Source of the DNA: Verrucomicrobiia bacterium
Lineage (GTDB): Bacteria; Verrucomicrobiota; Verrucomicrobiia; JABWAM01
DNA: 64,000 nt
NCBI GenBank assembly: GCA_020849895.1
Contig: JADZFN010000012.1
Location: 7,258-71,257, forward strand
Reading direction: 5' to 3'
Part shown: in pieces, positions 1 through 12,766 of the stretch
How the letters are laid out: each line of letters opens with the position of its first letter
Position numbering within the stretch: position 1 is the first letter of the stretch
Notes under the pieces: generated by a model
The model's database searches: none
What the model was told of the DNA's origin: nothing
Seen by the model: only the letters and a program-made list of their open reading frames with translations
Made by a program: the position numbers and the translations under genes

Positions 1-1
1 G

Positions 2-1378
2 CCGTGGATGTACGTGGCGGTCGGCCAGGGCAACTGGGAGCTTTTCGCCGTCAACGCCGACACGGGGGAGACGAAGTGCCTGGCGGACGTCCAGGGCGAG
101 AAATGCCGGGTCGAGGTCAGCCAGGGCAAGGACGTCTGCACCGCCTCCGTCAACGGAGGGGAGAAAAACGAGAAGTTCTGGTTGGTGGATGGCAAGGCCC
201 TGCCCATGGTGGCCGGGCAAACGCCTCCGGGCACGCCGATGAGCCAGAAGAAGTACGCGCACGTGGAGTGGAAGAACACCAAACCGATGGATGTCTCCCA
301 GCCGCCGGAGCTGGACAAGGAGCGCTGGGTGGAGGCGGATGGTCGGGGCGAGGGGGAAATCTTCTGGCGACCGGCCGGGTCCACGGGCGAGTACAAGTCG
401 CTCAAATTCGCGATCAAAAACGCGGAGCCTGTCCGCATCGAGTCGCTGATCGCCCTGCCGGATGGCTCGCTGCTGGGCAACACCGATTCGTACAACGGTT
501 TTTTCCGCTATTTCCCTGCGGACCGGAAGCTGGACTACTACGGCAAACACGGACCGAGCGGAGTCCAATCCGTGGTCGCCGAGGGGAAGGTCTGGTTCGA
601 CGGCTACCCCAACGTCCACCTGTATGCCTACGATCCCGCGCAACCGTGGACCTCGAAGCCGAACAACCCCAAGGACGCAAAGGTGAACCCGGAAGTCATC
701 GGCTCCTTCGGACAGGGCATCACCGAGGCTCACCACTGCAGGTTCCTCCTGGCCCCGGGCAACGGCCGAATCTACATCTGCGGCCACCGCGAGCGATGGA
801 GCACGGGTACGGGCCTGGGCTGGTACGAGATCGCCACCGGCAAGAAGTTCGGCCTGGGCCAGGCCAACAAGAAGGTCGAGCCCGAGGGCTTCATCGCCCT
901 GCCCAGGCTGGGACGGCTGGTTCTTTCCGTTCAGACCCTCGGGAAGGGCGACGCCCAGCTCATCGTCTACGACATGGATCTCAACGAGGTCGAGCGCCTC
1001 ACCCTCAAGCCCGGCCTGACCAATACCGGCCGGATCTTCAACGGTGACGACGATGGCAAGTTCCTTGGATGCTTTGAGAACCCTGGGCCCAACGATGCCG
1101 AGGCAAAGAGCCACACGCTGTACCTCTACGACCTGGCGGCGAAGAAGATCGAGAGGAGCGTGACCCTACCCTGCGACGCCATGGTCTTCCGTCGGCCCAA
1201 GGACGGCAGTTTCTGGATCAAGCTGGCCAACGGCCTGCTGGCCAGGCTGGATCCCCGCACGCTGGAGCTCAGGCCCGTGGGGCAGCTCGAACGGAAGTTC
1301 AGTTTTCCAACCTGGCAAGGGGCGGACCTCTACGGCGCCTGCGGGGGCGAGCTCGTGCGCGTCGTCGGCGTGAAGTGA
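2..1378 (+). CDS. secreted beta-propeller-like repeat protein, family paralog 1 (5'-truncated at window edge)
   Basis: Open frame runs from base 2. The ATG at 8 is internal: the context PW-MYVAVGQG matches PWVYVAVGQG in the interior of paralog 6217..8259. About 50 % identity to that paralog over blocks such as YNGFFRY and HRERWSTGTGLGWYEIATGKKFGLG. GC3-rich codon usage. The stop is coupled to the next gene (GTGA). Confidence 0.6.
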   Translation, partial: PWMYVAVGQGNWELFAVNADTGETKCLADVQGEKCRVEVSQGKDVCTASVNGGEKNEKFWLVDGKALPMVAGQTPPGTPMSQKKYAHVEWKNTKPMDVSQPPELDKERWVEADGRGEGEIFWRPAGSTGEYKSLKFAIKNAEPVRIESLIALPDGSLLGNTDSYNGFFRYFPADRKLDYYGKHGPSGVQSVVAEGKVWFDGYPNVHLYAYDPAQPWTSKPNNPKDAKVNPEVIGSFGQGITEAHHCRFLLAPGNGRIYICGHRERWSTGTGLGWYEIATGKKFGLGQANKKVEPEGFIALPRLGRLVLSVQTLGKGDAQLIVYDMDLNEVERLTLKPGLTNTGRIFNGDDDGKFLGCFENPGPNDAEAKSHTLYLYDLAAKKIERSVTLPCDAMVFRRPKDGSFWIKLANGLLARLDPRTLELRPVGQLERKFSFPTWQGADLYGACGGELVRVVGVK

Positions 1379-4005
1379 TCGCCATGGCCCCGACATCCTC
1401 AGGGTCCGCTGCGCCCGCGGCTTTGCGCGCGGGAGGCCTGTGGACCGCGGAGGTCCGATTCTGGCTGGCCCAGGAACCGTACTCCCCCGCGCACGCGCCG
1501 CACACCCGTTCCCGATGGTCCACCCGCGTCCGCTTCGCGGGGAGCGCGTCCGAGTGGCGCTTTGAGTTTGAGTGTCGCGCCGATCCGCCCGGGAAGGAGG
1601 CGCCGATCCGTCCCCTCGGCGACCCCGACGTGTGGCAGGGGGAATACGTGGAGGTCTTCATGCCCTGCGGTGAAGAGGGGGAATGCCTCCATCTGAGCGT
1701 GACGCGCTCCGGGTTGGCGATCAGCGAGCGCCACGACAAGCGGCGCGACCCGATCCCCGGCTGGCGGGGGACCGCCCGTGAGGTGAAGGACGGCTGGCGC
1801 GCCGAGATCGTCGTTCCGCGGGGTGCGCCGGGCCTCCCCGGGAAATTCCGTCTCGTGCGCTGGGTGCCGGGCGAGGGGCTTACCCGGTGGCCGACCCCGT
1901 TCGGTTCGTGGTGGCTCGTCGCCCCGCCGGATTTCCTTGAGGTCACCGGGGCAGGCGCCGCGCCCGCGCCCTCGGAGGACGAGATCGGGAAGTTCATCCG
2001 CGAACGCGAGCGGGGCCTTTTCGTTTCCGCCGGTCTCCCCGTGCCGGGAGAGGTCGCGGATCTCGGCTTCCTGGATCCGGTTCCCGCGGGGGAAGGGGGG
2101 TTTCTCCGGACGTTCCAGTTGCGCGCGGAAAAGAATCCGTGGCTGGGTTTCGACCTGCTTCCGCCGGCAAACATGGTGCATGCCCGCGACATGCTGGGGA
2201 ACCGCTTTTGGTATCACGACGCCTCCGTCCAGATGAGGGCGCCGTTCGACTGGGACACGGGCAGGGGCGACCCGTTCGTGATGGTCCACCTGACGCGTTT
2301 CGATTTCCTCGCGGACCTCGTGGCCGCGTGGCGTGAGACCGGCGACCTTGCCTTCGCCCGCAAGGCCATCGAGTGCGTCGCGACGTGGCTGGAGCGCCAC
2401 GACCTTCGCCAGTACCTGACGCCGGCGCGCTACCGCGCGCGTTGGAGCTGGCTGAACCTCCCTCATCGGCTCGTCTGCATGATGCAGACCGTGGGTTCGC
2501 TCGCCGGGACCGGCCTCGTCGGGGAGGGCCTTCTCCTGCGGCTTTACCAGGCCGTGGCGGGGGCGCTCCAGGTCCTCGATGGCAGCATGATGGCCCGGCA
2601 CTACAACAAGAACCACAGCCTGATCATCGCGGACCACGGGGTTGTGCTGTCGGTCCTCTGCTCGGAACTCCGCTGCGCGGCGCCGATGCGCGAGCGGTAC
2701 TTCGAGCATTTCCGCCGCTCCCTCGGGGTCCAGTTCCTTCCGGACGGTGTCCAGTGGGAGCTTTCGACGATCTACCACATGATCTGCTACCAGCGGCTGA
2801 CCGAGGCCACGTCGATGTGCGAGAAGGCCGGGATCCCCGTTCCTCCCGACCTCACCGGGTGGCGGCGCCGGATCATGACGGTGGGAGCGCGCTACCTCAC
2901 GCCGCACGGGCGGGTCTTCAACTTCAACGATGGAGGCATGCCGGGCACCGTGGACGCCATCGGCCGCCCCGACGACACCTTCGTCAGCCTGATCCTGCGG
3001 GAGGGCCCGTCCCTCGATGCGAACGAGGCGTTGGCCCTCGCCACGAACGGGCGGCAGGGAGCGATCTTTCCTCCTTACAGCCACGCGATGCCCTGGGCCG
3101 GGCACTTCATCCTGCGCGACGGCCCGGGGCCGGAGAGCACGGGCCTGGCGTTCGACGCCGGGCCGCTCGGCATGGGACACGCTCACGAGGACGCGCTCAC
3201 CCTCACGATGACCTCCTTCGGGAAGACGCTCCTCGCGGACCTCGGTTCGGGCGCCTACGACAACACCCTTCCCATGCGCGGCTACAGCATGTCCACCGAG
3301 GGACATTCGACGATCTGCGTGGACGGCTGCGGGCAGGCGGGCGCATGGTTCCCCGAGACCTGGAGCCGCAAGACTTCGCTCGAGGGGCGTCACTGGTTCG
3401 GTCGCGCCGTTCAGTTCGTGGCCGGGGAGTACGGCCTTGGGTACGGGGACGAGGGGGCGGTTCGCGTGGAGCATCGCCGCGCGGTCCTCCTCGTGAACGG
3501 GGCGTACGTGGTGGTCTTCGACCGGCTCCTCGGGGAAGGGGAGCACCTCCTTGAGTCGCGCTTCGTGTTCAACGCGCTTCCCTGGCGCGAGACCGAACGC
3601 GGCCTGCGGACGACCAGCGGCACCGGCGACCTCGACGTGCGGGCGATCTGGCCCGTCGCCCTCGCGAGGGAGGTGGCCTGTGGGCAGGAGAAGCCGTTCG
3701 CGGGCTGGGTGATCCGCGGCCTCTACGGGCAGGAACCCGCCCCGCGACTCACTTTCTCGGCGAAGGTGCCGCTCCCCGCCTGTTGGGTCACCCTCCTCAC
3801 GCCGTTCCGCGACGCCGCGGAGATCCCCGAGGTCGCGGCGGAGAAGCACCGCGATGAAATCAGGGTTCGCCTGGCGACCGCGCGTTCAACCGCGTTGCTC
3901 GTGGTGCGTGAGGACCCGTTCAAGGTTGATTTCGAGAATGAGCGGGTGACGTTTTCTGCCGCGGCCGGCGCGGGCGGGAAGTTTGCGTTCCGGGAGGAGG
4001 AGTAA
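1375..4005 (+). CDS. heparinase II/III-like family protein (putative polysaccharide lyase)
   Basis: 876-aa frame with the Hepar_II_III core motif GHAHEDALTLTMTSFGKTLLADLG and NFNDGGMPG. The GTG at 1375 (or ATG at 1384) overlaps the upstream stop. The TAA stop overlaps the next ATG (TAATG at 4003-4007). The opposite-strand 816-aa ORF is Arg/Gly-rich shadow. Confidence 0.7.
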   Translation: MIAMAPTSSGSAAPAALRAGGLWTAEVRFWLAQEPYSPAHAPHTRSRWSTRVRFAGSASEWRFEFECRADPPGKEAPIRPLGDPDVWQGEYVEVFMPCGEEGECLHLSVTRSGLAISERHDKRRDPIPGWRGTAREVKDGWRAEIVVPRGAPGLPGKFRLVRWVPGEGLTRWPTPFGSWWLVAPPDFLEVTGAGAAPAPSEDEIGKFIRERERGLFVSAGLPVPGEVADLGFLDPVPAGEGGFLRTFQLRAEKNPWLGFDLLPPANMVHARDMLGNRFWYHDASVQMRAPFDWDTGRGDPFVMVHLTRFDFLADLVAAWRETGDLAFARKAIECVATWLERHDLRQYLTPARYRARWSWLNLPHRLVCMMQTVGSLAGTGLVGEGLLLRLYQAVAGALQVLDGSMMARHYNKNHSLIIADHGVVLSVLCSELRCAAPMRERYFEHFRRSLGVQFLPDGVQWELSTIYHMICYQRLTEATSMCEKAGIPVPPDLTGWRRRIMTVGARYLTPHGRVFNFNDGGMPGTVDAIGRPDDTFVSLILREGPSLDANEALALATNGRQGAIFPPYSHAMPWAGHFILRDGPGPESTGLAFDAGPLGMGHAHEDALTLTMTSFGKTLLADLGSGAYDNTLPMRGYSMSTEGHSTICVDGCGQAGAWFPETWSRKTSLEGRHWFGRAVQFVAGEYGLGYGDEGAVRVEHRRAVLLVNGAYVVVFDRLLGEGEHLLESRFVFNALPWRETERGLRTTSGTGDLDVRAIWPVALAREVACGQEKPFAGWVIRGLYGQEPAPRLTFSAKVPLPACWVTLLTPFRDAAEIPEVAAEKHRDEIRVRLATARSTALLVVREDPFKVDFENERVTFSAAAGAGGKFAFREEE

Positions 4006-5549
4006 TGACTTCTGCTCTCCCCGTGATTCCCGTTCGGCGCGGCCCGCACCGAATCTGCTCTGATCAAATCAACGTGCCACGCCCCATGAACCCCAACCCG
4101 CCGCTTCTCATCCTCTCCCCGGCCTCTCCGACCGCTGCCTACACCCAGTACATTCGCCAGTTCGTGGATGTTGGCGTTCACTTTCCCTTCGCTGACGACT
4201 ACGCGTTGCCGCGCGGGCTGCCGTCGGACCTCGCGGGAATCCGGTGCGTGGTGATCGATCCGGCGCGGCGTGAGGAGTTTTCGCAGGGGCCGCTTGCGGC
4301 CCGGTTGATCGAGTTCGAGCGCGGCGGGGGCCACCTCTTCTGGCCCGACCCGAACACTCCCACCGGGGGAGCGACGGGCGACCTCATCGTCCGACATTCG
4401 GTCGCGCGCATCATCAACACCGCGGGCCTGCCCATGGGCGACCCGGCGATGATCGCGCGTTTGCAGGAGGTGGACGACGCGTTCCTGGTGGGCGCCTGCA
4501 AGGGTTCAACCGCGGACGAACTGGGCCAGTACGTGCGGATGAGGCACTATTTTCCGGAGCCCGTGGGCATGTGGGCGATGCCGACCGCGATCGAGGCCGC
4601 AGAGTTCTTTGGTGAACCGGCGCTTGCCGACCCGGTCTGGGCACATATCGCCGCGTATTACCCGCAGTGCGACCATCAACCCGACCGCCATGGCACCCAG
4701 CATTTCCTCGATTACGCGGAGAAGACCGGTGACCGGAAGCCCCTGGAGCATCTCGTCGCCGTTTGTCGAGCGTCGAACCCCTGGCCACGGCTCTGGCGGA
4801 AGGGAGACGTTTTCCTCAACTGCGACCTGCACGTGCCGGATGGCGCCGACGCGGACCATCCCCCGGAGATCGTCCTCCGCAACGCGTGGGTCTGGCCCGA
4901 GACCAACCTTTGGATCGGAGAGACGTATGCGACCGTGTCCCGCTTTACGGGGGAGGCGCGCTGGCTCGACCGCGCGGTGGCTCACGTGCTCGAGGCGCAC
5001 CGGTGGCTTTTCGAGCCGAAAACCGCCCTGTACTGGCACGTCGGACGGCCGGGCGGCCCGGACCTTCGTTCCGCGCCGTGGGCGCGAGGCGACTCTCATT
5101 TCCTTTGGGGCGTGCGCTCGATGCTGAACCTCATGCCGGAGGAGCATCCGAAGCGGCGAGACCTCTGCGGCCTGCTGGGCGACCACCTCGAGGGGTTGCT
5201 GCGCGTCCAGGGCGCCGACGGCCTGTGGCTCAACGTGCTCGATGCCTCCCCGTCGGATAGTCGGCCGTGCTCGTCGGCCTCCTCGCAATTCGTCCGCATC
5301 TACGCGCGGGCATACGCGAGGGGATGGCTCCGCGACGAGCGGATCCCGCCGATGGTGGAGCGCGCGTGGAAGGGCCTGAAGACGAAGATCTGGGACGGAC
5401 GCTTCCTTGCGTGGTGCGTGGGGACGTCGCACGGCCTCAACCGCCAAGTGTACCTGTCGCGGCCGCACGATTCCATGCGCTGCTGCCGCTCCGCGATCCT
5501 CTCCGCGTGGATGGAGATCCAGAAGATGCGCGGGGTGACGAAGGGATGA
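4005..5549 (+). CDS. glycoside hydrolase family 88/105-like protein (unsaturated uronyl hydrolase fold, PF07470-like)
   Basis: 514-aa frame. W-A-R-G-x-x-H-x-x-W-G (PWARGDSHFLWGV) and the LWLNVLD block resemble the (alpha/alpha)6 unsaturated glucuronyl/rhamnogalacturonyl hydrolases. Translationally coupled to the upstream lyase. Confidence 0.5.
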   Translation: MTSALPVIPVRRGPHRICSDQINVPRPMNPNPPLLILSPASPTAAYTQYIRQFVDVGVHFPFADDYALPRGLPSDLAGIRCVVIDPARREEFSQGPLAARLIEFERGGGHLFWPDPNTPTGGATGDLIVRHSVARIINTAGLPMGDPAMIARLQEVDDAFLVGACKGSTADELGQYVRMRHYFPEPVGMWAMPTAIEAAEFFGEPALADPVWAHIAAYYPQCDHQPDRHGTQHFLDYAEKTGDRKPLEHLVAVCRASNPWPRLWRKGDVFLNCDLHVPDGADADHPPEIVLRNAWVWPETNLWIGETYATVSRFTGEARWLDRAVAHVLEAHRWLFEPKTALYWHVGRPGGPDLRSAPWARGDSHFLWGVRSMLNLMPEEHPKRRDLCGLLGDHLEGLLRVQGADGLWLNVLDASPSDSRPCSSASSQFVRIYARAYARGWLRDERIPPMVERAWKGLKTKIWDGRFLAWCVGTSHGLNRQVYLSRPHDSMRCCRSAILSAWMEIQKMRGVTKG

Positions 5550-5556
5550 AGGAGGC

Positions 5557-5610
5557 GGTAGCCCGTGCTGTCCCGGCACGGGAGCTGCCGTAGGGACACG
5601 GCGGGCTACC
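5557..5610. repeat. REPIN (inverted REP doublet) GGTAGCCCGTGCTGTCCCGGCACGGGAGCTGCCGTAGGGACACGGCGGGCTACC
   Basis: Nested palindromes (GGTAGCCCG...CGGGCTACC, TCCCG GCA CGGGA, GTAGGGAC). A near-identical copy lies at 6167..6222. Sits immediately 3' of the RAYT gene. Confidence 0.75.
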
Positions 5611-6016
5611 GGGGACATGAGGTTTCCTGACCAAAGCCGAACCATTTCCACTCGGATGGTTCCCTGACCAAACCAGCGCGGACGGGGTTCAGGGCCATGT
5701 ACCAGGACTTCTCCTCGACGGATTCATCCTGCCGCAGGCGACGGTCAAAGAAGTTGTCCTGCCAGTGGAGGGCGAGAGTACGGGTGGTGTAGCGCTTCCA
5801 GTTCTGCATGAGTTTCGCGAGCGACACACCGAGTGGCAGCTGGATCAGCAGGTGAAGGTGGTCCGGCATGATGACGTACGCGCGGCAGAACCATTTGGCT
5901 TGGGCGTGGTAAACGAGAATCGACTCCACGATCCTCCCGGCACAAGCCAGCAGGACCTCGGATCGACGGGGTAGGGCGCATTGCGTCACGTAGAACGTGA
6001 AGTCTTCCGGACGCAC
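5606..6016 (-). CDS. REP-associated tyrosine transposase (RAYT, IS200/IS605 TnpA-like Y1 HUH enzyme)
   Basis: HUH motif YVIMPDHLHLLIQLP, the WQDNFFDRRLR block and the catalytic-Tyr block SWYMALNPVRAG. The N-terminal F-YVT motif (EDFTFYVTQCAL) follows a GTG at 6016. An alternative GTG lies at 6052. The track ORF extends to 6445 only by read-through across REP sequence. The TAG stop lies inside the REP terminus GGGCTACC. Confidence 0.75.
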   Translation of the reverse strand: MRPEDFTFYVTQCALPRRSEVLLACAGRIVESILVYHAQAKWFCRAYVIMPDHLHLLIQLPLGVSLAKLMQNWKRYTTRTLALHWQDNFFDRRLRQDESVEEKSWYMALNPVRAGLVREPSEWKWFGFGQETSCPR

Positions 6017-6113
6017 CGAATCCGGTGGTTGGTGCCGGAGGCGTGAGGCCACGACTGAGCGTAAGCACAGGCGAGGTTGCTGCTGCAACGAAATCCCGCG
6101 CGCGGATGTTGGA

Positions 6114-6140
6114 CCCGTCGTAGGGACACGACGGGCTACC
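6114..6140. repeat. single REP unit CCCGTCGTAGGGACACGACGGGCTACC
   Basis: Hairpin CCCGTCG/CGACGGG with a GGGCTACC tail. Variant of the REP half found in the two REPINs. Confidence 0.6.
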
Positions 6141-6166
6141 AAGGGGAATGTGGGGGAATGCTCTGC

Positions 6167-6222
6167 GGGTAGCCCGTGCCGTCCCGGCACGGGACCCGCC
6201 GTAGGGACACGGCGGGCTACCG
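6167..6222. repeat. REPIN GGGTAGCCCGTGCCGTCCCGGCACGGGACCCGCCGTAGGGACACGGCGGGCTACCG
   Basis: About 95 % identical to 5557..5610. Its terminal GGGCTACC supplies the TAG stop (6217-6219, minus strand) of the beta-propeller gene 6217..8259. Confidence 0.75.
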
Positions 6223-8259
6223 CCCTTCCACCTTCACGCGGAAGACCTCGCCATCCGCGGCGCCGTAGAGGTCGTTCCCGACCCACAGGACGGGATGGAG
6301 CGCCTTGGGAAGCTTTCCGACCGGGGTGAGTTCGAGGGTCTCCACGTTCAGTCGGCAGAGTGAGGAGTCCTTGATGATCCACCACGTCCCGTCCGAGGGA
6401 CGCTGGAAGGCGTTCTCCTGGAGAACCCCGTCCACGTCCGCCCACTTCACGACGGCCTTCTTCTCGAGGTCGTAGAGGTAGAGGGCGTCCTTCGCCTCGC
6501 CGTCGATCCTCCCGAGGAGGGCAGGATCCCTGCCGATCGCGGTGAGGAACCCGGTCGCGGGGAGCCCTTCCTTCACGGTAAGCCGTTCCACCTCCTTGAG
6601 GTCGAGGTCGTAGACCCGGAGTTGGGCGGTTCCGACCGGGGCGCCCTTGGTTTCGGAATGCACCCGCCCGGAGACCACCACTCGTCCGGCCTTCGGGAGC
6701 AGGGCGAAACCCTGGGGATCGACGTCCTTCATGTCAGACCCGAGCCCGAACTTCTTTCCCGTGGCGAGTTCGTAGTAGCCGAGGCCGGTTCCCGTGCTCC
6801 AGCGCTCGCGGTGTCCGAGGAGGTAGAGCCGGCCGTTGGGCCCGAGAAGGATCCCCTTGGAGTGGTGCGCCTCGGTGACGCCCTGCCCGAAGTAGCCGAC
6901 GAGGCGCGGGTTGTCGCCGGGGTTGCCGGCGTTGGCCTTCTGCGGCGCCTTCCAGGGCTGGTCCGGGTCATAGACGTACAGCCCCACGTTCGGATAGCCG
7001 ATGTACCAGGCCTTGCCCTCCGCGACGGTGATCAGCGGGCTGCTCGGGCCGGCCTTCCCGAAATATTCGAACTTCGAGACTTTGGTGTGGTAGCGGAAGA
7101 AGCCGTTGTACTGGACGACGCTTCCGAAAACGTCGCCATCGGGCAACTCGGCCATGGACACGATTTTCTGCGCCGCCGCGCTCTTCACGTGAAAGCTGAC
7201 CGTCTTGAAGTCCTCCTGCGCGCCGGCGGGGCGCCAGCGCACATGGGAGAGTCCCGAGGGATCCATTTCCCCGAGGCCCTGCGGATCGAGCTCGGGCGGC
7301 GTCCCCTCGGGGATGGGTTTCGTCAACTTCCACGGGATATGGGGATACGCGTTGTTCGCCAGGCGAGCGGAGTCCGGCGGCTGGGTCTCCGAGAGCTTGC
7401 CCTCCACGCACCACACGCGCTTGCCGCCGCCTTTCTCGGTGAGGCCGGCCGTGACAAAATCCTTCTCCGCCACCTCGATCCGCGAACCATCGCCCTTGCG
7501 CTCCGCAAGGAGGCGCTTTTCCCCGGTGTCCACGTTGAGGGCCACGAGTTCCCAGTCTCCCTGCCCGACGGCGACGTACACCCAGGGGAGGTCGAGGGCG
7601 AGGGTGTAGCCGTAGGTGAGGCTCGCGGGGCGGTTCGCCCCGATGTCGGTGAAGACCTTCCATTCGAGGGTGTCCGGGTTGATCCGCACGACCGCGGTCT
7701 TGCCGCTGTAGCCCTGGGTGGTCCCGTAGAGGCAGCCGTCCTTTCCGAGCCTGAACTGGTAAAGGCATCGGTCGTTGAAGAAGGGCTTCCACTCGGAGAG
7801 TTCCCCAAGGATCTTGAGCGCGTCCTCGACCGGGTCGTAGTACCACATCTGCATGAAGTCGACCGGGTAGAAGACGCGCCCGTTCTCCGCCCGGATCCCC
7901 AGGCGGCCGTGGAAGCCGGGCAGCCCCAGGGTCTTCACCTTGTTGCCGGCGAGGTCGGCGATGATCCACTCGGCGTCAGGCCGCAACTCGGGGTCTTCGA
8001 AGGCGACGTAGACGCGGCCGGTGCCCTCCACCTTCTTGCGCACGTACTTGAAGTCCGTGGTGCCCGCGTAGTTCATGAACTGCCCGATCCAGCGCCACTC
8101 GCCGCGGGAGTTCTCGACGAGGGTGCTCACGTTGGCGCGCGCCGTCTTCACCGGCGCGCCGAGGTTCTCGGCAAGAAGGGAAGGCACCTCCGCGCGGAGG
8201 AATGAAGTGGTGAGCAGCGAAGCGAGGAGCAGAACGGTGCGGCAGTTCATGGGGATCAT
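6217..8259 (-). CDS. secreted beta-propeller-like repeat protein, family paralog 2
   Basis: 680 aa with an N-terminal signal peptide (MIPMNCRTVLLLASLLTTSFLRAEVPS). Paralog of 2..1378 and a more distant relative of 13286..15382 (shared NPRLV..F.G and GHRERWSTGTG blocks). The antisense 527-aa ORF is shadow. Confidence 0.7.
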   Translation of the reverse strand: MIPMNCRTVLLLASLLTTSFLRAEVPSLLAENLGAPVKTARANVSTLVENSRGEWRWIGQFMNYAGTTDFKYVRKKVEGTGRVYVAFEDPELRPDAEWIIADLAGNKVKTLGLPGFHGRLGIRAENGRVFYPVDFMQMWYYDPVEDALKILGELSEWKPFFNDRCLYQFRLGKDGCLYGTTQGYSGKTAVVRINPDTLEWKVFTDIGANRPASLTYGYTLALDLPWVYVAVGQGDWELVALNVDTGEKRLLAERKGDGSRIEVAEKDFVTAGLTEKGGGKRVWCVEGKLSETQPPDSARLANNAYPHIPWKLTKPIPEGTPPELDPQGLGEMDPSGLSHVRWRPAGAQEDFKTVSFHVKSAAAQKIVSMAELPDGDVFGSVVQYNGFFRYHTKVSKFEYFGKAGPSSPLITVAEGKAWYIGYPNVGLYVYDPDQPWKAPQKANAGNPGDNPRLVGYFGQGVTEAHHSKGILLGPNGRLYLLGHRERWSTGTGLGYYELATGKKFGLGSDMKDVDPQGFALLPKAGRVVVSGRVHSETKGAPVGTAQLRVYDLDLKEVERLTVKEGLPATGFLTAIGRDPALLGRIDGEAKDALYLYDLEKKAVVKWADVDGVLQENAFQRPSDGTWWIIKDSSLCRLNVETLELTPVGKLPKALHPVLWVGNDLYGAADGEVFRVKVEGR

Positions 8260-8337: not shown

Positions 8338-9003
8338 TTAAAACTCGAAGTAGAAATCCTCCTGGACCGTGTCTTTCAGATCGATTTTAGCCACTCGTCC
8401 GTCGGCGAAGGCGGCGTTGAATTTGGAATTGTGACAGGCGGACTCGTTGTAGTTGTCGATCCAGGCCGGCGGGGGGGTCCAACTTGGAATGAAATTATCG
8501 GGGCGAAAGGGCCCGCCGGACGCCCGGGAATCCATGAAGAGAACGAGACGCTCGGGCACCGCCTTCATGCTGGCCTTGCCATCGGACTCGTACACATACA
8601 GGACCCGGTTCAGTGCAATCTGCGTGTAGTGGTAGATGTCAGGGCTGACCGCATAGTTCTTGCTGGAGGGGCACCGCAAGATGGGAGTCAAAGTGCTCGG
8701 CTTGTTGTTTTGAGGGAAGCTCACGGGACCGATATAGGTGGTCAGGTTGCTTGCCCAAAAGTAGGTGTTCGGAGCGTGTTGCTCGTTGTCATTGGCATAG
8801 AGGCGAAGGGCCAAATTCAGTTGCCGCTGATTGTTCATGCAGACGATGGAGTGGGCCTGCTCCCGTGCTGACCTGAGCGCGGGCAGGAGCAGCGCCGCCA
8901 AAATTGCGATGATGGCGATGACGACCAGCAACTCGATGAGCGTGAAGCTCCTGCTGTCCGGCGGTTTCTTAATACACCTTTCCTGAAGGCGGGGAGAATT
9001 CAT
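8338..9003 (-). CDS. prepilin-type N-terminal cleavage/methylation domain protein with C-terminal H-X9-DG motif (DUF1559-like pseudopilin)
   Basis: Start at the ATG giving [43 protein letters not shown]. The track ORF start at 9159 is upstream read-through. C-terminal [12 protein letters not shown] matches H-X9-DG. Lies 78 nt upstream of the propeller gene. Confidence 0.8.
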
Positions 9004-9402
9004 CCGATTTGCCGGGAATCGAGGCCGCGGCTGGCCCCCTGCACACGGTCGAAAGGCCCATACCTTGGGCTCCCGCGAAACGCACGCCAACGGTCGGATC
9101 CTGAGGTCATGAGCCGTGGTCACAAGGGAGGTGGGGAGAAGGATGGCTTTTGAGATCATGAATCCATTGCGATTCTCCCAGCATGTCAGTCAGTCGTCAG
9201 CACTCGAACATTGATCATTGTATTGGCGATGGTGGAAGGATTCAGTATTTCGACATGTCCGTCCGAAAAACACAATTGATTGTCGAGGAATATGCGTGAT
9301 GGGGGTAGAGAGCGAGACGGCCCGTTCGATCTCGCGATCGTGCTCCCCGCGAACGACCCCGACATCGTCCCGCTCGTGCGGTCCTCGGAATGACACGGTC
9401 CG

Positions 9403-11964
9403 CTACGATTCCACTGCCTTCCAGGGCTTCTCGATCAACGGCGACACCCTTCCCTTCACCACAGTCGCGCCTTGCTCATCGCGGAGGAACGAGCCGTTGA
9501 CGACCGCCGCGCAGCGGCGATTCCCGTCCGCTCCGAAGCGCTCGACCGCGAGCCACCCGTCCGTCCGCCCGCCCACCGCAGGGCGCGCGTCCCAGCCACC
9601 CCAGCGGATGTGGAGAACATCCCGTGCGCCCTCGCGGAAGACCACCTCCACACAGGCGCCTCTGTCGTCCGTCCCCACCACCCGCACGGCGGGCGTCAGC
9701 GGCTCTCTCGCCGAGGGAACGAGCGCCCATACCTGCCGCATCGGCAGCGTCCCTTCCCAGTGGTGGATGGCGCAGAAGGCGGGGAAGCAGTTGAAATCCT
9801 GCGCCACCCAACCTTGCACGGGGTCCATCTGGCCGCTCACGGCCCGCAGCGACCAGCCTTCTTGGAGGGCGGGCGCGATCTCGAAGTTGGACAGCGCGGC
9901 GCGCGCGGTCGCCGCGCGGAGACCTTTCACGACGACGGGCATCGGCGCGAAGTGCCACAGCGCCTCCGCGGAGTGCTTCCCCTCCCCCTCGAGCTCGTCG
10001 ACCACGAGCCAGTAGTCGGGCTTCAGGAACAGGACCGCGCGGCGGTGCAGGGGCTCTCCCGTCACGCCGGGGTAGCCCCCGGCGTAGACGCCGGCACCCA
10101 CGTCGAGAGTCCCTCCGCTCGCCCAAAAGATCTCGCTGGAGACGTCGCGCTTCCTCGACTCTCGCGTCTCGGAGACGGCCCTCTGCTGGCCTTTTCCGTC
10201 CACGAGGAGCGTGTTGTGGGACGCCGTGGAGCGGTAGTACCGGAAGAACTCGTCCTCGCCGTAACCCGCGATGCCGGGGTCCACGAGGAAGGGCGAGCCG
10301 AAGGCATAGGTCTCGACCCCGAGGGCATCCTCGTGCTGGTGGCCCGCGCCGAACGGCCCGACGTCGAAGAGCGACCACCGGTCCTGCGCGTTCACGCCCG
10401 AGCGCATGACCAGGAGACCTGCGTTCCGAAAACCGTGCGACTCGCCCGACGGAGGTCGCCCCTCGGCGCCGCCGGTGGCGAGCCAGAGCATCCCCGCGTC
10501 CTTCCAGAGCCGCGCCCCCTCTCGAAGGAAGAGATCATGGGACCGCAGGAATCCGCCGGAATCGTTGTGAGCGGGGCAGGTGCCGTCCGGCCGCACGAGT
10601 CCCGCGATCGCGCTGTACATGGCGCGGAGCCGCGCGCCATAAACGCGCGGCATGGGGAAACCGTTGAGCCGCGCCACTTCGAAGGGCTGGACGAAGGCGT
10701 TCGCCGAGCTGATGTGGTAGCCGGGCGAAAGCTCGTTGTGGATGCCATCGGGGTAAACCGTCTCGGCCGCCAGCGCCGCGAGGCGGCCCAGGCCCTCGTC
10801 GCGCCACGAGGCGGACCGGCGGTGCTCTGGGAACGAAATCCCGATAAGCGAAAGCGCCTGCGACTCGATCACCGTCCAGTTGGTGCCCGAAATCGAACCG
10901 TGCCGAAGGAGAAACTCCGCGTGCTCGTGCATGGACTTGAGCATGTCGAACCAGGTGCGGTCCCGCAGCGCCGGTTCCCCGAGGAGACCGAAGAAGACCT
11001 GCAACCACGTCCGCTTGAAGCGGCACCCCGCCGTGAGGGTACTCCAGGCGCGACTCCCCTTGCCATCGTGCCCGACCGGCACCGGCGAGGCGGCGATCCA
11101 CGACGAGAGCACCTCGTCGATCTTGGCGGCGTACTTCCGTTTCCTCGCCGCGTGCCACGCGAGGAGCAGGTCCACCACGAAGTAGTGGCGGTGCAGGCCG
11201 TCCGGGTCCCCGACCTCGCCCGTCGCCAGCTTCCAGTCGAACGTCGGACCGAGGTCCTGTCCCCCGACCACGTTGCGGCAGGCGAGGTCCGCCACCGCCA
11301 GCGAGGTCGGCCACGCCGGGGGCGCAGCGAACGGGAGGCTCGGCTTCTTTCGCCGCGCGAGGTACGCGCGCAAGCCGCGGATCGCCCCCTTAAAGTCCCC
11401 CCGCTCCACCGAGAGCCGAGCCGCCTTGAGGCCGGGGCGGCCCCAGTCCCACGCCCGCGCGAAACCGGTGTCGGTCAGACGCGTCCCCGCAGGCACGCGG
11501 CGCTTCTGCAGGCGCACCGACGCGATCCGCGTCGGGCCGCCGTAGTAACCCCGGACTTGAACGCGCGTCACCCTTCCCCAGATCGAGCCCGGGACGAGGC
11601 CGAAGTTCTCGATCGGGTAGAGCACGTCGCGCCAGCCGTGCCAGCGCTCGCGCGTCATCGCGCCCGCACCGGTGATGCACCGGAGCCTCGGCTTTCCCTC
11701 ACGCTCCACGGTCACCTGGAGCTCGCACCCTTCCCCCTCGCGGAAACCGACGCGCAAAACGACCTGGTCGAAGTCTCCCCAGTCTCCCGCGCAGGGGAGC
11801 TCGACCTCCTGCTTCGACGCGTCGTATAGGGCGCAGGGAACGCCCTCGGGGGAACCTCTCCCGCCATCGGCGAGCCCCGGTGCCGCGGCGAGTTCCCCCG
11901 CGCCGAGCAACACCCGCTCGGCGAGGAGCTCGTCGGTCAGAGTTTCGGGGATCGTGGAGGCCAT
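9403..11964 (-). CDS. heparinase II/III-like family protein (putative polysaccharide lyase)
   Basis: Hepar_II_III core GHQHEDALGVETYAFGSPFLVDPG plus the NELSPGYH and AHNDSGGF blocks. Paralog of 1375..4005. ATG at 11964 (MASTIPE...), 1 nt after the stop of the upstream gene. The antisense 785-aa ORF is shadow. Confidence 0.7.
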   Translation of the reverse strand: MASTIPETLTDELLAERVLLGAGELAAAPGLADGGRGSPEGVPCALYDASKQEVELPCAGDWGDFDQVVLRVGFREGEGCELQVTVEREGKPRLRCITGAGAMTRERWHGWRDVLYPIENFGLVPGSIWGRVTRVQVRGYYGGPTRIASVRLQKRRVPAGTRLTDTGFARAWDWGRPGLKAARLSVERGDFKGAIRGLRAYLARRKKPSLPFAAPPAWPTSLAVADLACRNVVGGQDLGPTFDWKLATGEVGDPDGLHRHYFVVDLLLAWHAARKRKYAAKIDEVLSSWIAASPVPVGHDGKGSRAWSTLTAGCRFKRTWLQVFFGLLGEPALRDRTWFDMLKSMHEHAEFLLRHGSISGTNWTVIESQALSLIGISFPEHRRSASWRDEGLGRLAALAAETVYPDGIHNELSPGYHISSANAFVQPFEVARLNGFPMPRVYGARLRAMYSAIAGLVRPDGTCPAHNDSGGFLRSHDLFLREGARLWKDAGMLWLATGGAEGRPPSGESHGFRNAGLLVMRSGVNAQDRWSLFDVGPFGAGHQHEDALGVETYAFGSPFLVDPGIAGYGEDEFFRYYRSTASHNTLLVDGKGQQRAVSETRESRKRDVSSEIFWASGGTLDVGAGVYAGGYPGVTGEPLHRRAVLFLKPDYWLVVDELEGEGKHSAEALWHFAPMPVVVKGLRAATARAALSNFEIAPALQEGWSLRAVSGQMDPVQGWVAQDFNCFPAFCAIHHWEGTLPMRQVWALVPSAREPLTPAVRVVGTDDRGACVEVVFREGARDVLHIRWGGWDARPAVGGRTDGWLAVERFGADGNRRCAAVVNGSFLRDEQGATVVKGRVSPLIEKPWKAVES

Positions 11965-11965
11965 C

Positions 11966-12766
11966 CTACTTCCCATCCGCGAGCGAGAAAGAAACCTCCA
12001 ATTCGAACCCGCCCTGTGACGCGAACTCGCGTGAGGTGAAGGCGGCGTAGCCGTGGTCCTGGGCCCAGAACACAAACCCGCAACTTTTCCCCTCCTTCGC
12101 CATTGCCTGCACGAGTGCGGTCACGTCCGCGGTGAAACGCCCCTTGTCGGCGGAGTTCCAGCTGTCGGCCTGGACGGGCACCTCGGGGTCCTGGGTGAAG
12201 TCCTCCGTGCCGAAACCCCGCTTGTCATTGGGTGTGCCGGCCGGGACCCTCCACTCGGCGTCCTTCGCCTTGCCAGCCCAGGCACCCCCGTACTGAAAGG
12301 CGGCGTCAAAGGTTGGCCCATAGTTCGCGTTCTGCTTGTCGTCCGCCTCGACGGCGCCTCCCGTTCCCTCGGGGCCGGCGTCGCCGGGCGTTACGTACGA
12401 GAGCCAATCGGTGAGGCAGCGCCCCACGAAGATCTTGCCCTTCGCGGCGCTGTAGTCGTCCACGTAGAAGCTGCCGCAGAGGGTGGCCTTCACGATGCGG
12501 GCGCCCGGCGGGACGTGGCTCGGCCCGATGAGGCCCTTCACGCCCACCAGCCCGTAGTAGAAGGTTTGTCCGCTGGACTGAAAACCAACGCGCACCTCCT
12601 TCAGTTTCCCTTGGTTGAAGTTCTCGCGCCCGCCGACCACGTCGTGACCAACGTAGGTGTCCTCGATCTGGTCCGGAGCGAAATGGAGGATCTTCACCTG
12701 GGCGGAGGCCGCGCACGCGCCGGCGACGGTCAGGACGGTCGCAAGCAGGAGGGAGGAAGGTTTCAT
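11966..12766 (-). CDS. secreted ConA/LamG-like domain protein (putative carbohydrate-binding)
   Basis: Start at MKPSSLLLATVLTVAGACAASAQ (signal peptide). The 468 nt of open frame upstream lacks protein-like composition. LamG-like block GSFYVDDYSAAKGKIFVG. Tightly coupled to the downstream lyase. Confidence 0.45.
   Translation of the reverse strand: MKPSSLLLATVLTVAGACAASAQVKILHFAPDQIEDTYVGHDVVGGRENFNQGKLKEVRVGFQSSGQTFYYGLVGVKGLIGPSHVPPGARIVKATLCGSFYVDDYSAAKGKIFVGRCLTDWLSYVTPGDAGPEGTGGAVEADDKQNANYGPTFDAAFQYGGAWAGKAKDAEWRVPAGTPNDKRGFGTEDFTQDPEVPVQADSWNSADKGRFTADVTALVQAMAKEGKSCGFVFWAQDHGYAAFTSREFASQGGFELEVSFSLADGK

Follow-up and report, generated by a model that had tools for sequence, protein, structure and literature searches.

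In a 64-kb stretch of Verrucomicrobiia DNA (hereafter, the window), a gene for a RAYT (TnpA_REP) transposase is located between a GH88-like gene and a propeller-like gene, together with five copies of a single family of short palindromic repeats (REPs), all of which lie between positions 5557 and 6221. The features of this probable REPtron and of its neighbors are given below.

4005..5549, plus strand: GH88-like gene, outside the element; converges on the REPtron, with its own TGA 7 nt before the REP doublet
5557..5582, plus strand: REP copy 1, forming the outer half of the left doublet (tail-to-tail); stem variant A (GGTAG-CCCGTGC(T)-loop-GCACGGG)
5584..5610, minus strand: REP copy 2, stem variant B (GGTAG-CCCGCCGT-GTCCCT-ACGGCagc); 3' stem decayed
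5606..6052, minus strand: gene for the RAYT (TnpA_REP), which has 148 aa; stop at 5606-5608, probable start GTG 6052
6114..6140, minus strand: solo REP of variant B whose 8-bp stem is perfect; the RAYT start lies 61 nt downstream
6168..6193, plus strand: REP copy 4, forming the inner half of the right doublet (tail-to-tail); variant A with a 9-bp stem and a TCC loop
6195..6221, minus strand: REP copy 5, of variant B with a perfect 8-bp stem; the last codon and stop of the propeller-like gene come from its head
6217..8259, minus strand: propeller-like gene, outside the element; GenBank IT578_01695, 677 aa from ATG 8250

Read 5' to 3' on its own strand, the REP unit consists of a (C/T)GGTAG head, a stem of 8-9 bp that starts CCCG, a loop and a second arm that ends CGGG, and in each unit GGTAG stands directly at the foot of the hairpin. 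The loop is GTCCCT (consensus GTCCCY), or TCC where the stem is 1-2 pairs longer. The two doublets (5557-5611 and 6168-6222, ~55 nt each) are 95% identical and are each made up of two inverted REPs, and a third copy of the 30-nt REP unit occurs at 6111-6140. The solo REP at 6114-6140 has its head directed away from the RAYT gene and stands head-to-head with the REP at 6168 across a 27-nt spacer. All five REPs are found 0-170 nt from the ends of the RAYT gene, in inverted orientations (within ±1 kb), and on both sides of the gene a single repeat type alternates in orientation, as in BIMEs. Scanning the window with the pattern GTAGCCCGNNNNGTCCC gave exactly five exact matches, all at the REPtron, and the REP/REPIN palindromes of the original prediction, i.e., two doublets and a solo unit, were found where it had placed them. 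When up to two mismatches were allowed, 11 matches were obtained vs. 3.5 ± 1.7 in shuffled sequences, and none of 100 shuffles reached 11. A general scan of the window for perfect hairpins preceded by GT[AG]G returned the REPtron sites and two others (chance expectation, 2.3), with no other GT[AG]G-hairpin family above chance. Pattern and hairpin scans likewise found no REP of this family elsewhere in the window (~63 kb). Folding of the REP units and doublets as single-stranded DNA gave z-scores of -3.8 to -5.3, with none of 200 shuffles folding as well. Scans of positions 5300-6500 detected neither intrinsic terminators nor sigma-70 promoters, and no T-run follows the palindromes.

The minus-strand frame of the RAYT gene is open back to 6445 in a mechanical ORF listing. 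Since five homologs start M-[AP]-x-R-L-x-H ~17 residues before a conserved FYVTQC strand, the real start is most likely GTG 6052, which has no obvious ribosome-binding site. The GenBank product (P0001, annotated "transposase") comprises 107 aa from GTG 5929 and is devoid of the FYVTQC strand; judged against the homologs, that gene call is too short, and its correction has small but real practical value. The original prediction of a Y1 HUH transposase of the REP-associated class was borne out by profile searches, in which NCBIfam NF047646 (REP_Tyr_transpos) matched with 86 bits (cutoff, 80) over profile positions 10-145 of 146, whereas NF033573 (transpos_IS200) scored 25.5 bits, below its cutoff of 55. 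Pfam Y1_Tnp gave a partial match (31.5 bits), which is the behavior reported for class-2 proteins (PMC6006769). The sole PDB sequence match was 4ER8, the E. coli TnpA_REP (E = 9e-9, residues 19-143), to whose H-M-H and Tyr115/N119 the HUH and Tyr of the RAYT align. The protein carries the motifs PDHLHLL (HUH) and WQDNFFDRRLR and a catalytic Tyr in YMALNP(V). This signature, i.e., DHLH, WQ, Asp and Arg at E. coli positions 100/101, a retained Arg104 and Y-x3-NP (the class-2 signature; PMC6006769), with no group-2 C-terminal tail, fits class 2, in particular subclass 2.5 or 2.7 ("group 3"), whose enzymes were described by Quentin et al. and Corneloup et al. as using short, unbulged REPs (PMC6006769, PMC8266576). 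Of the reference RAYTs that Di Nocera et al. give in their supplement, Opitutus terrae Oter_2468 matched best (31% identity, E = 2e-18), followed by the acidobacterial aba_3477 and then by Pseudomonas group-3 proteins. The window contains one RAYT copy, and no TnpB is found beside it, its neighbors being the GH88-like and propeller-like genes. Instead of the outcome that had been set against the original prediction (an IS200/IS605 protein with a partner TnpB and a palindrome confined to this locus), we found a RAYT without TnpB and a palindrome that recurs in related genomes. The conserved core of the RAYT ends WKWFG[FY], and the tails beyond it vary in length among homologs.

The minus-strand stops at 5606-5608 and 6217-6219 had both been placed inside REP termini, and each was indeed found to be the TAG of a REP head. 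The RAYT ORF ends ...TGT CCC CGG TAG, where CGG-TAG is the (C)GGTAG head of the REP at 5584-5610, and the propeller-like ORF (680 aa) ends ...GAA GGG CGG TAG, where CGG-TAG is the head of the REP at 6195-6221; the REP contributes the last Arg codon and the TAG to both genes. On the other side of the element, REP copy 1 has its head TAG at 5559-5561, in the reading frame of the GH88-like gene and four codons past that gene's own TGA. Two ORFs stop at the TAG of a GGTAG head because there the REPs are no more than one or two codons from where the genes natively end. The original prediction spoke of reading frames that were "re-terminated or just abutted", of which only the latter part held, since at its C-terminus the propeller-like protein matches its two closest orthologs in length. 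It ends VKVEGR*, while the ortholog with 85% identity (P0065, locus L058) ends VKVEAR* and that with 78% identity (P0066, locus L059) ends VKEAGR*, these two being 79% identical to each other. In three more distant propeller paralogs or homologs, the C-terminus is one residue shorter and the last residue is K. The alignment of propeller paralogs, proposed as a check for residues gained or lost at the REP junction, thus indicates a change of at most one or two residues.

The orthologous loci also provide a view of the age of the insertion. At the orthologous propeller stop, L059 has CGG-TAG-CCCGCCGTGTCCC followed by unrelated DNA, i.e., a half-REP (head plus 5' stem), and the ortholog of the window's heparinase gene follows directly, 64 bp after the half-REP. 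No GH88 gene, RAYT or other REP was found at this syntenic site. In L058, the propeller ortholog ends AGA-TAG at the same codon position, and no REP follows. Since a half-REP stands at the orthologous stop in L059, insertion of a REP at the propeller stop appears to be old, and we infer that it predates the split from the relative carrying the 78% ortholog. Given the identities among the three propeller proteins, the simplest history would be that a REP inserted long ago at the gene end, that a deletion later cut it short in one lineage and that another lineage lost it, while the Arg-TAG end was kept; separate insertions at a favored site are a possible alternative. A single old insertion would make this a dated example of a REP-donated Arg-TAG gene end surviving speciation, as well as an example of a deletion ending inside a REP.

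Close homologs of the RAYT (n = 5, including P0003 at 54%) share 51-56% identity with it. In the groundwater locus L051 (P0002), one REP is found on each side of the RAYT gene, the two being inverted with heads outward, and the RAYT ORF reads through the 3' REP. GRDGLP-type tails of several RAYT homologs can be explained by such read-through of the 3' REP, and the tails GHNGLP and GRERLP (homologs among P0003, P0005, and P0006) look like REPs read in another frame, which suggests that REPs flank those genes too. In L054/L055 (P0004), a head-to-head REP pair is located upstream of the RAYT gene and two tail-to-tail doublets downstream; the RAYT stop, TGG-TAG, is a REP head, and the stop of a convergent Mur-ligase gene, AGG-TAG, is the head of the outermost REP. 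Vertical, single-copy persistence is a hallmark of domesticated RAYTs of which the loci examined give no sign, since the genes adjacent to the RAYT differ in every one of them. When a metagenome collection was searched with the RAYT alignment, the only hits were two loci that had already been identified, so that this RAYT clade is rare in that collection.

To describe the distribution of the REP family, species-representative genomes (a set outside which the window's MAG falls) were scanned with GGTAGCCCG-N4-GTCCC-N2-C-N3-GGG, yielding 50 stretches. More than half of these (26 of 50) came from four Verrucomicrobiota MAGs, with at least 17 in CAZZBZ01, at least seven in CAZNSF01, and one each in CAYYYL01 and CAYZAE01; other taxa (Streptomyces, Planctomyces, and others) contributed one or two stretches each, consistent with chance. 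Re-scanning of the 26 loci identified ~45 REPs, arranged as singles, tail-to-tail dimers of the kind seen in the window, and head-to-head dimers 5 or 22 nt apart, and no RAYT was detected in these loci by tblastn. In an alignment of 56 REP copies, the GGTAG head was invariant and the loop nearly so, and the base before the GG of the head was mostly C or T. Across the stem, 96.6% of cells were paired vs. 34-48% when the partners were slid, and six of the eight stem pairs changed on both sides (58 cells), a level reached in none of 500 shuffles. As read from this alignment, it is the hairpin itself, beyond its sequence, that is conserved and under selection. At least five species-level Verrucomicrobiota genomes have in common one REP family, whose head and loop are conserved and whose stem covaries. 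As the remaining ~63 kb of the window contain no further REP of the family, the system may be dormant or close to extinction in the genome from which the window derives.

Considered together, the locus is very probably a REPtron, i.e., the gene for a domesticated single-stranded-DNA transposase (RAYT, class 2 Y1-HUH) within an array of cognate GTAG-type REPs that, going by homology to TnpA_REP, would be spread by the enzyme. The architecture, the protein family, the dispersal of gene-less REPs in relatives, and selection on the hairpin are matters of observation, and the steps of the mechanism are drawn by analogy with TnpA_REP of E. coli, Stenotrophomonas, and Marinomonas (PMC3333891, PMC3479197, PMC8266576). 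Biochemical work on TnpA_REP has demonstrated strand-specific binding of the folded REP, cleavage, and rejoining (PMC8266576); in the systems studied, GTAG belongs to the REP itself, standing where IS608 has its guide sequence, and the DNA is cut at a CT or CA dinucleotide (PMC8266576). By this analogy, the RAYT of the window would bind the folded, single-stranded REP hairpin in a strand-specific manner, with the 5' GTAG and probably the conserved GTCCCY loop serving as recognition and guide elements. It would then cut at a nearby dinucleotide via a 5'-phosphotyrosine link and rejoin the strands. Such activity would spread or remove REPs and REPINs, with the gene itself remaining single-copy, and gain or loss would probably take place on single-stranded DNA at replication forks.

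The compactness of the unit (~0.58-0.67 kb, similar to IS200) and the hairpins that bracket the gene could also suggest an autonomous, tnpA-only insertion sequence of the IS200 type that transposes as a whole, with the "REPs" being its ends and MITE-like derivatives. RAYT homologs in differing neighborhoods at every locus seen, and the absence of a RAYT gene from the syntenic site in L059, would also be expected of such a mobile unit. We nevertheless consider this very improbable, since the protein fails the IS200 model (25.5 vs. 55 bits) while passing the RAYT model, has Y-x3-NP in place of the Y[IV]ENQ motif of subclass 1.1, and has neither IS608 nor ISDra2 TnpA among its PDB matches at E < 1. 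Moreover, the flanks consist of one repeat type in alternation and not of distinct left and right ends, TnpB is absent, and gene-less REPs outnumber genes in relatives (26 loci without RAYT). Even less probable is that the palindromes serve the host as regulatory or terminator hairpins where two genes converge, with the transposase-like gene a coincidental relic. They do lie between convergent genes and immediately after stop codons, and effects of REPs on mRNA stability, termination, and translation are known (PMC3733652, PMC12306157); however, there is no T-run, the terminator scan was negative, RAYT homologs of 51-56% identity have the same repeat on their flanks although their neighborhoods are unrelated, and the protein family is defined by its association with such repeats. 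A host function and RAYT-driven spread are, in any case, not mutually exclusive.

A further question is why the REPs coincide with stop codons. In the two REPtrons of the window and L054 (P0004), all ORF-facing outward heads (5/5) are in frame with their ORFs. This would be expected if REPs integrated directly 3' of a pre-existing (G)GTAG, TAG stops being natural landing sites at which proteins are left untouched. IS200/IS605 elements do insert 3' of a specific tetra- or pentanucleotide (PMC8266576), and the L058 ortholog (85%) ends AGA-TAG without a REP at the same codon position as the REP-bearing orthologs. However, that site is ATAG and not GTAG, and the GG before TAG is invariant in 56/56 REP copies, which is easier to understand if the head travels with the element. 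In addition, experiments place GTAG within the REP, at the guide position, with cleavage at CT/CA (PMC8266576), and the outward heads in CAZZBZ01 do not coincide with ORF ends. On the strength of the invariant GG and the published guide-sequence role, GTAG was judged unlikely to be an insertion target as opposed to part of the element, although we regard this as somewhat less improbable than an IS200-type unit. Survivorship of in-frame insertions accounts for the phase equally well. A REP landing out of frame in the last codons would cause translation to run on through the hairpin and lengthen the protein, as in L051, and only in-frame arrivals would terminate at once with the protein unchanged and hence survive; we therefore read the phase bias of ORF-facing heads as survivorship and not as evidence of targeting. 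At the CAZZBZ01 loci, none of ~13 outward heads ends a credible ORF, the in-frame upstream ORFs being short or Arg/Ser/Pro-rich wrong-frame products. Gene termination by REP-head TAGs was accordingly rejected as a general rule of the family.

A REPtron at this locus has clear precedent within the phylum. Di Nocera et al. (2013) described GTAG repeats in the PVC superphylum, including Planctomycetes (PMC3733652), and reported four REP families (GTAG-17 to GTAG-20) and the RAYT Oter_2468 in O. terrae, a species they call "highly enriched". The O. terrae GTAG REPs occur as singles and as head-to-head and tail-to-tail dimers, some 1-5 bp apart, and many are intragenic (PMC3733652). In the same survey, head-to-head and tail-to-tail dimers with 1-2 bp between the units were described, REPtrons were found in most GTAG-bearing species, some with 3' gene overlap, and GTAG REP termini were often found to donate a TAG stop to flanking ORFs (PMC3733652). 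Our locus resembles that of O. terrae in phylum, in its short, GTAG-tagged hairpins in singles and dimers, in its RAYT, and in its REP-donated TAG stops. It differs in that the RAYTs share 31% identity, with Oter_2468 ~30 aa longer at the C-terminus, and in that O. terrae is REP-enriched, with many REPs intragenic, whereas those of the window are limited to the REPtron in 64 kb. The original prediction that REP/RAYT systems are scarcely described in PVC bacteria is fair as to rarity, but novelty cannot be claimed given the O. terrae and Planctomycetes cases of 2013 (PMC3733652). Every element of the finding has precedent, and the locus is an ordinary REPtron that changes no concept; what is new is only this REP family, for which the comparison with GTAG-17 to GTAG-20 is one of descriptions, and its distribution in uncultured Verrucomicrobiota. 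Combined with RAYTs whose identity has fallen to ~50%, the family should be useful for studies of REPIN-RAYT co-evolution outside Proteobacteria.

Better-known enzymes provide further comparisons. Group 3 RAYTs (subclass 2.5; Pseudomonas, Stenotrophomonas; PMC2817692, PMC6006769, PMC8266576) have in common with the RAYT of the window a length of ~150 aa, DHLH and WQ motifs, an Asp at E. coli position 100 and the lack of a group-2 C-terminal tail, and their REPs are likewise short, unbulged hairpins right after GTAG, with a conserved loop and doublets. They differ in having YI[VI]ANP where the window protein has YMALNP, and identity is 33-40% over only ~85 residues. Subclass 2.5 proteins (~151 aa; DH[LF]H, WQ, YI[VI]ANP) are reported to be mostly limited to xanthomonads and pseudomonads (PMC6006769). 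The E. coli TnpA_REP (YafM, 4ER8; group 2, subclass 2.2) aligns at the HUH and Tyr, and its gene is flanked by REP pairs, but identity is 24%, the E. coli REPs are longer, bulged, and strictly GTAG-dependent, and the ~20-residue C-terminal extension that contacts GTAG in the E. coli protein is absent here. More remote are the IS200/IS605 TnpAs (IS608, ISDra2), which share the HUH-Y1 fold family, recognition of single-stranded hairpins, and a tetranucleotide guide 5' of the hairpin. These have Y-x3-Q instead of Y-x3-NP, and their profile cutoff was not reached; furthermore, the window element is without distinct left and right ends or TnpB, and gene-less repeats are dispersed in relatives.

The position of the REPs at the two stop codons could conceivably have consequences for translation. 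In E. coli, a REP located <16 nt from a stop codon lowers translation and stalls the terminating ribosome (Liang et al., 2015, as presented in PMC12306157). In the window, the REP hairpin starts one base after the TAG stop, and by analogy it is possible that a hairpin in this position lowers translation of both the RAYT and the propeller-like gene. More speculatively, placement of the RAYT stop in a REP head may be a conserved, cis-acting translational brake on the very transposase that moves the REP, an idea that we consider doubtful, if less so than the alternatives weighed above. If true, the REP would throttle translation of its own mover and of neighbors such as the propeller gene; as a corollary, the in-frame TAG of GGTAG would be a selected, "self-terminating" feature, and REPINs would settle in the last codons of genes. 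The RAYT stop lies inside a REP head in two REPtrons, those of the window and of L054, whose proteins are only 54% identical.

The GH88-like gene in the window stops at TGA 5547-5549, and the TAG of the neighboring REP head (5559-5561) lies in the same frame, four codons past this TGA. Each of the window's three outward-facing heads is thus in phase with the gene that runs into it. The window, in which two genes stop inside REP heads (GGTAG at the hairpin foot), has a counterpart in L054, another REPtron, whose RAYT (P0004) is 54% identical. There, REP heads hold the stops of the RAYT gene and of a convergent Mur-ligase-like gene, as follows.

L054 894-899 and 1066-1070: REP-head stops, TGG-TAG of the RAYT gene and AGG-TAG of the Mur-ligase-like gene

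At its other end, the window's RAYT gene probably extends beyond GenBank's call, P0001, which starts at GTG 5929 and comprises 107 aa. Five homologs reach back as far as GTG 6052, a start that gives 148 aa and includes the conserved FYVTQC strand. Judged by this alignment, P0001 appears to be an N-terminally truncated version of RAYT.

Window 5929-6052, minus strand: probable N-terminal part of RAYT outside the GenBank call, from the alignment with five homologs

Comparison of window positions 4000-6221 with L059, a locus of a related organism, showed that the propeller ortholog there terminates in a half-REP consisting of head, 5' stem and loop only (L059 6895-6970), 64 bp from the heparinase ortholog. 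The GH88-like gene, RAYT and four REPs are absent between these two orthologs in L059. Relative to the window, this looks like the result of a deletion of ~2.2 kb, one of whose breakpoints falls in the REP loop; alternatively, the window lineage may have gained these parts. In L058 (2690-2720), the propeller ortholog closest to that of the window (85% identity) ends in AGA-TAG. This end matches that of the REP-bearing genes in codon position, but no REP lies 3' of it. Either a REP was lost and the Arg-TAG left behind, or the Arg-TAG end is older than the REP.

In MAG CAZZBZ01, head-to-head REP dimers with a gap of only 5 nt occur at L017 (1181-1237), L020, L021, L025, L040 and L050, with the sequence GGGCTACCG-N-CGGTAGCCC. 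These dimers always pair a GCCGT stem variant with a GTGCT partner, and the recurrent heterodimer may be the mobile unit in this genome.

In the window's MAG, the 680-aa "propeller" family is represented by at least three paralogs.

Window 1-1372: propeller family member
Window 6217-8259, minus strand: propeller family member
Protein P0067: propeller family member

The family has no match in Pfam, and its sole domain match is a weak one to DUF5074 in one paralog. Both window paralogs adjoin heparinase II/III-like genes, and the family probably belongs to a cluster for the utilization of glycosaminoglycans or polysaccharides. The heparinase II/III-like gene (1375-4005) and the GH88-like gene overlap, stop on start, in the sequence ATGA (4002-4005), which suggests that the two genes are translationally coupled and that GH88 is a long-standing operon member rather than cargo brought with RAYT. 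A further ORF separates the propeller gene from a second heparinase II/III-like gene (9403-12075).

Window 8338-9159, minus strand: ORF with a prepilin-type N-terminal methylation motif and a weak DUF1559 match

Proteins of this prepilin-type N-terminal methylation/DUF1559 class are abundant in Planctomycetes and Verrucomicrobia.
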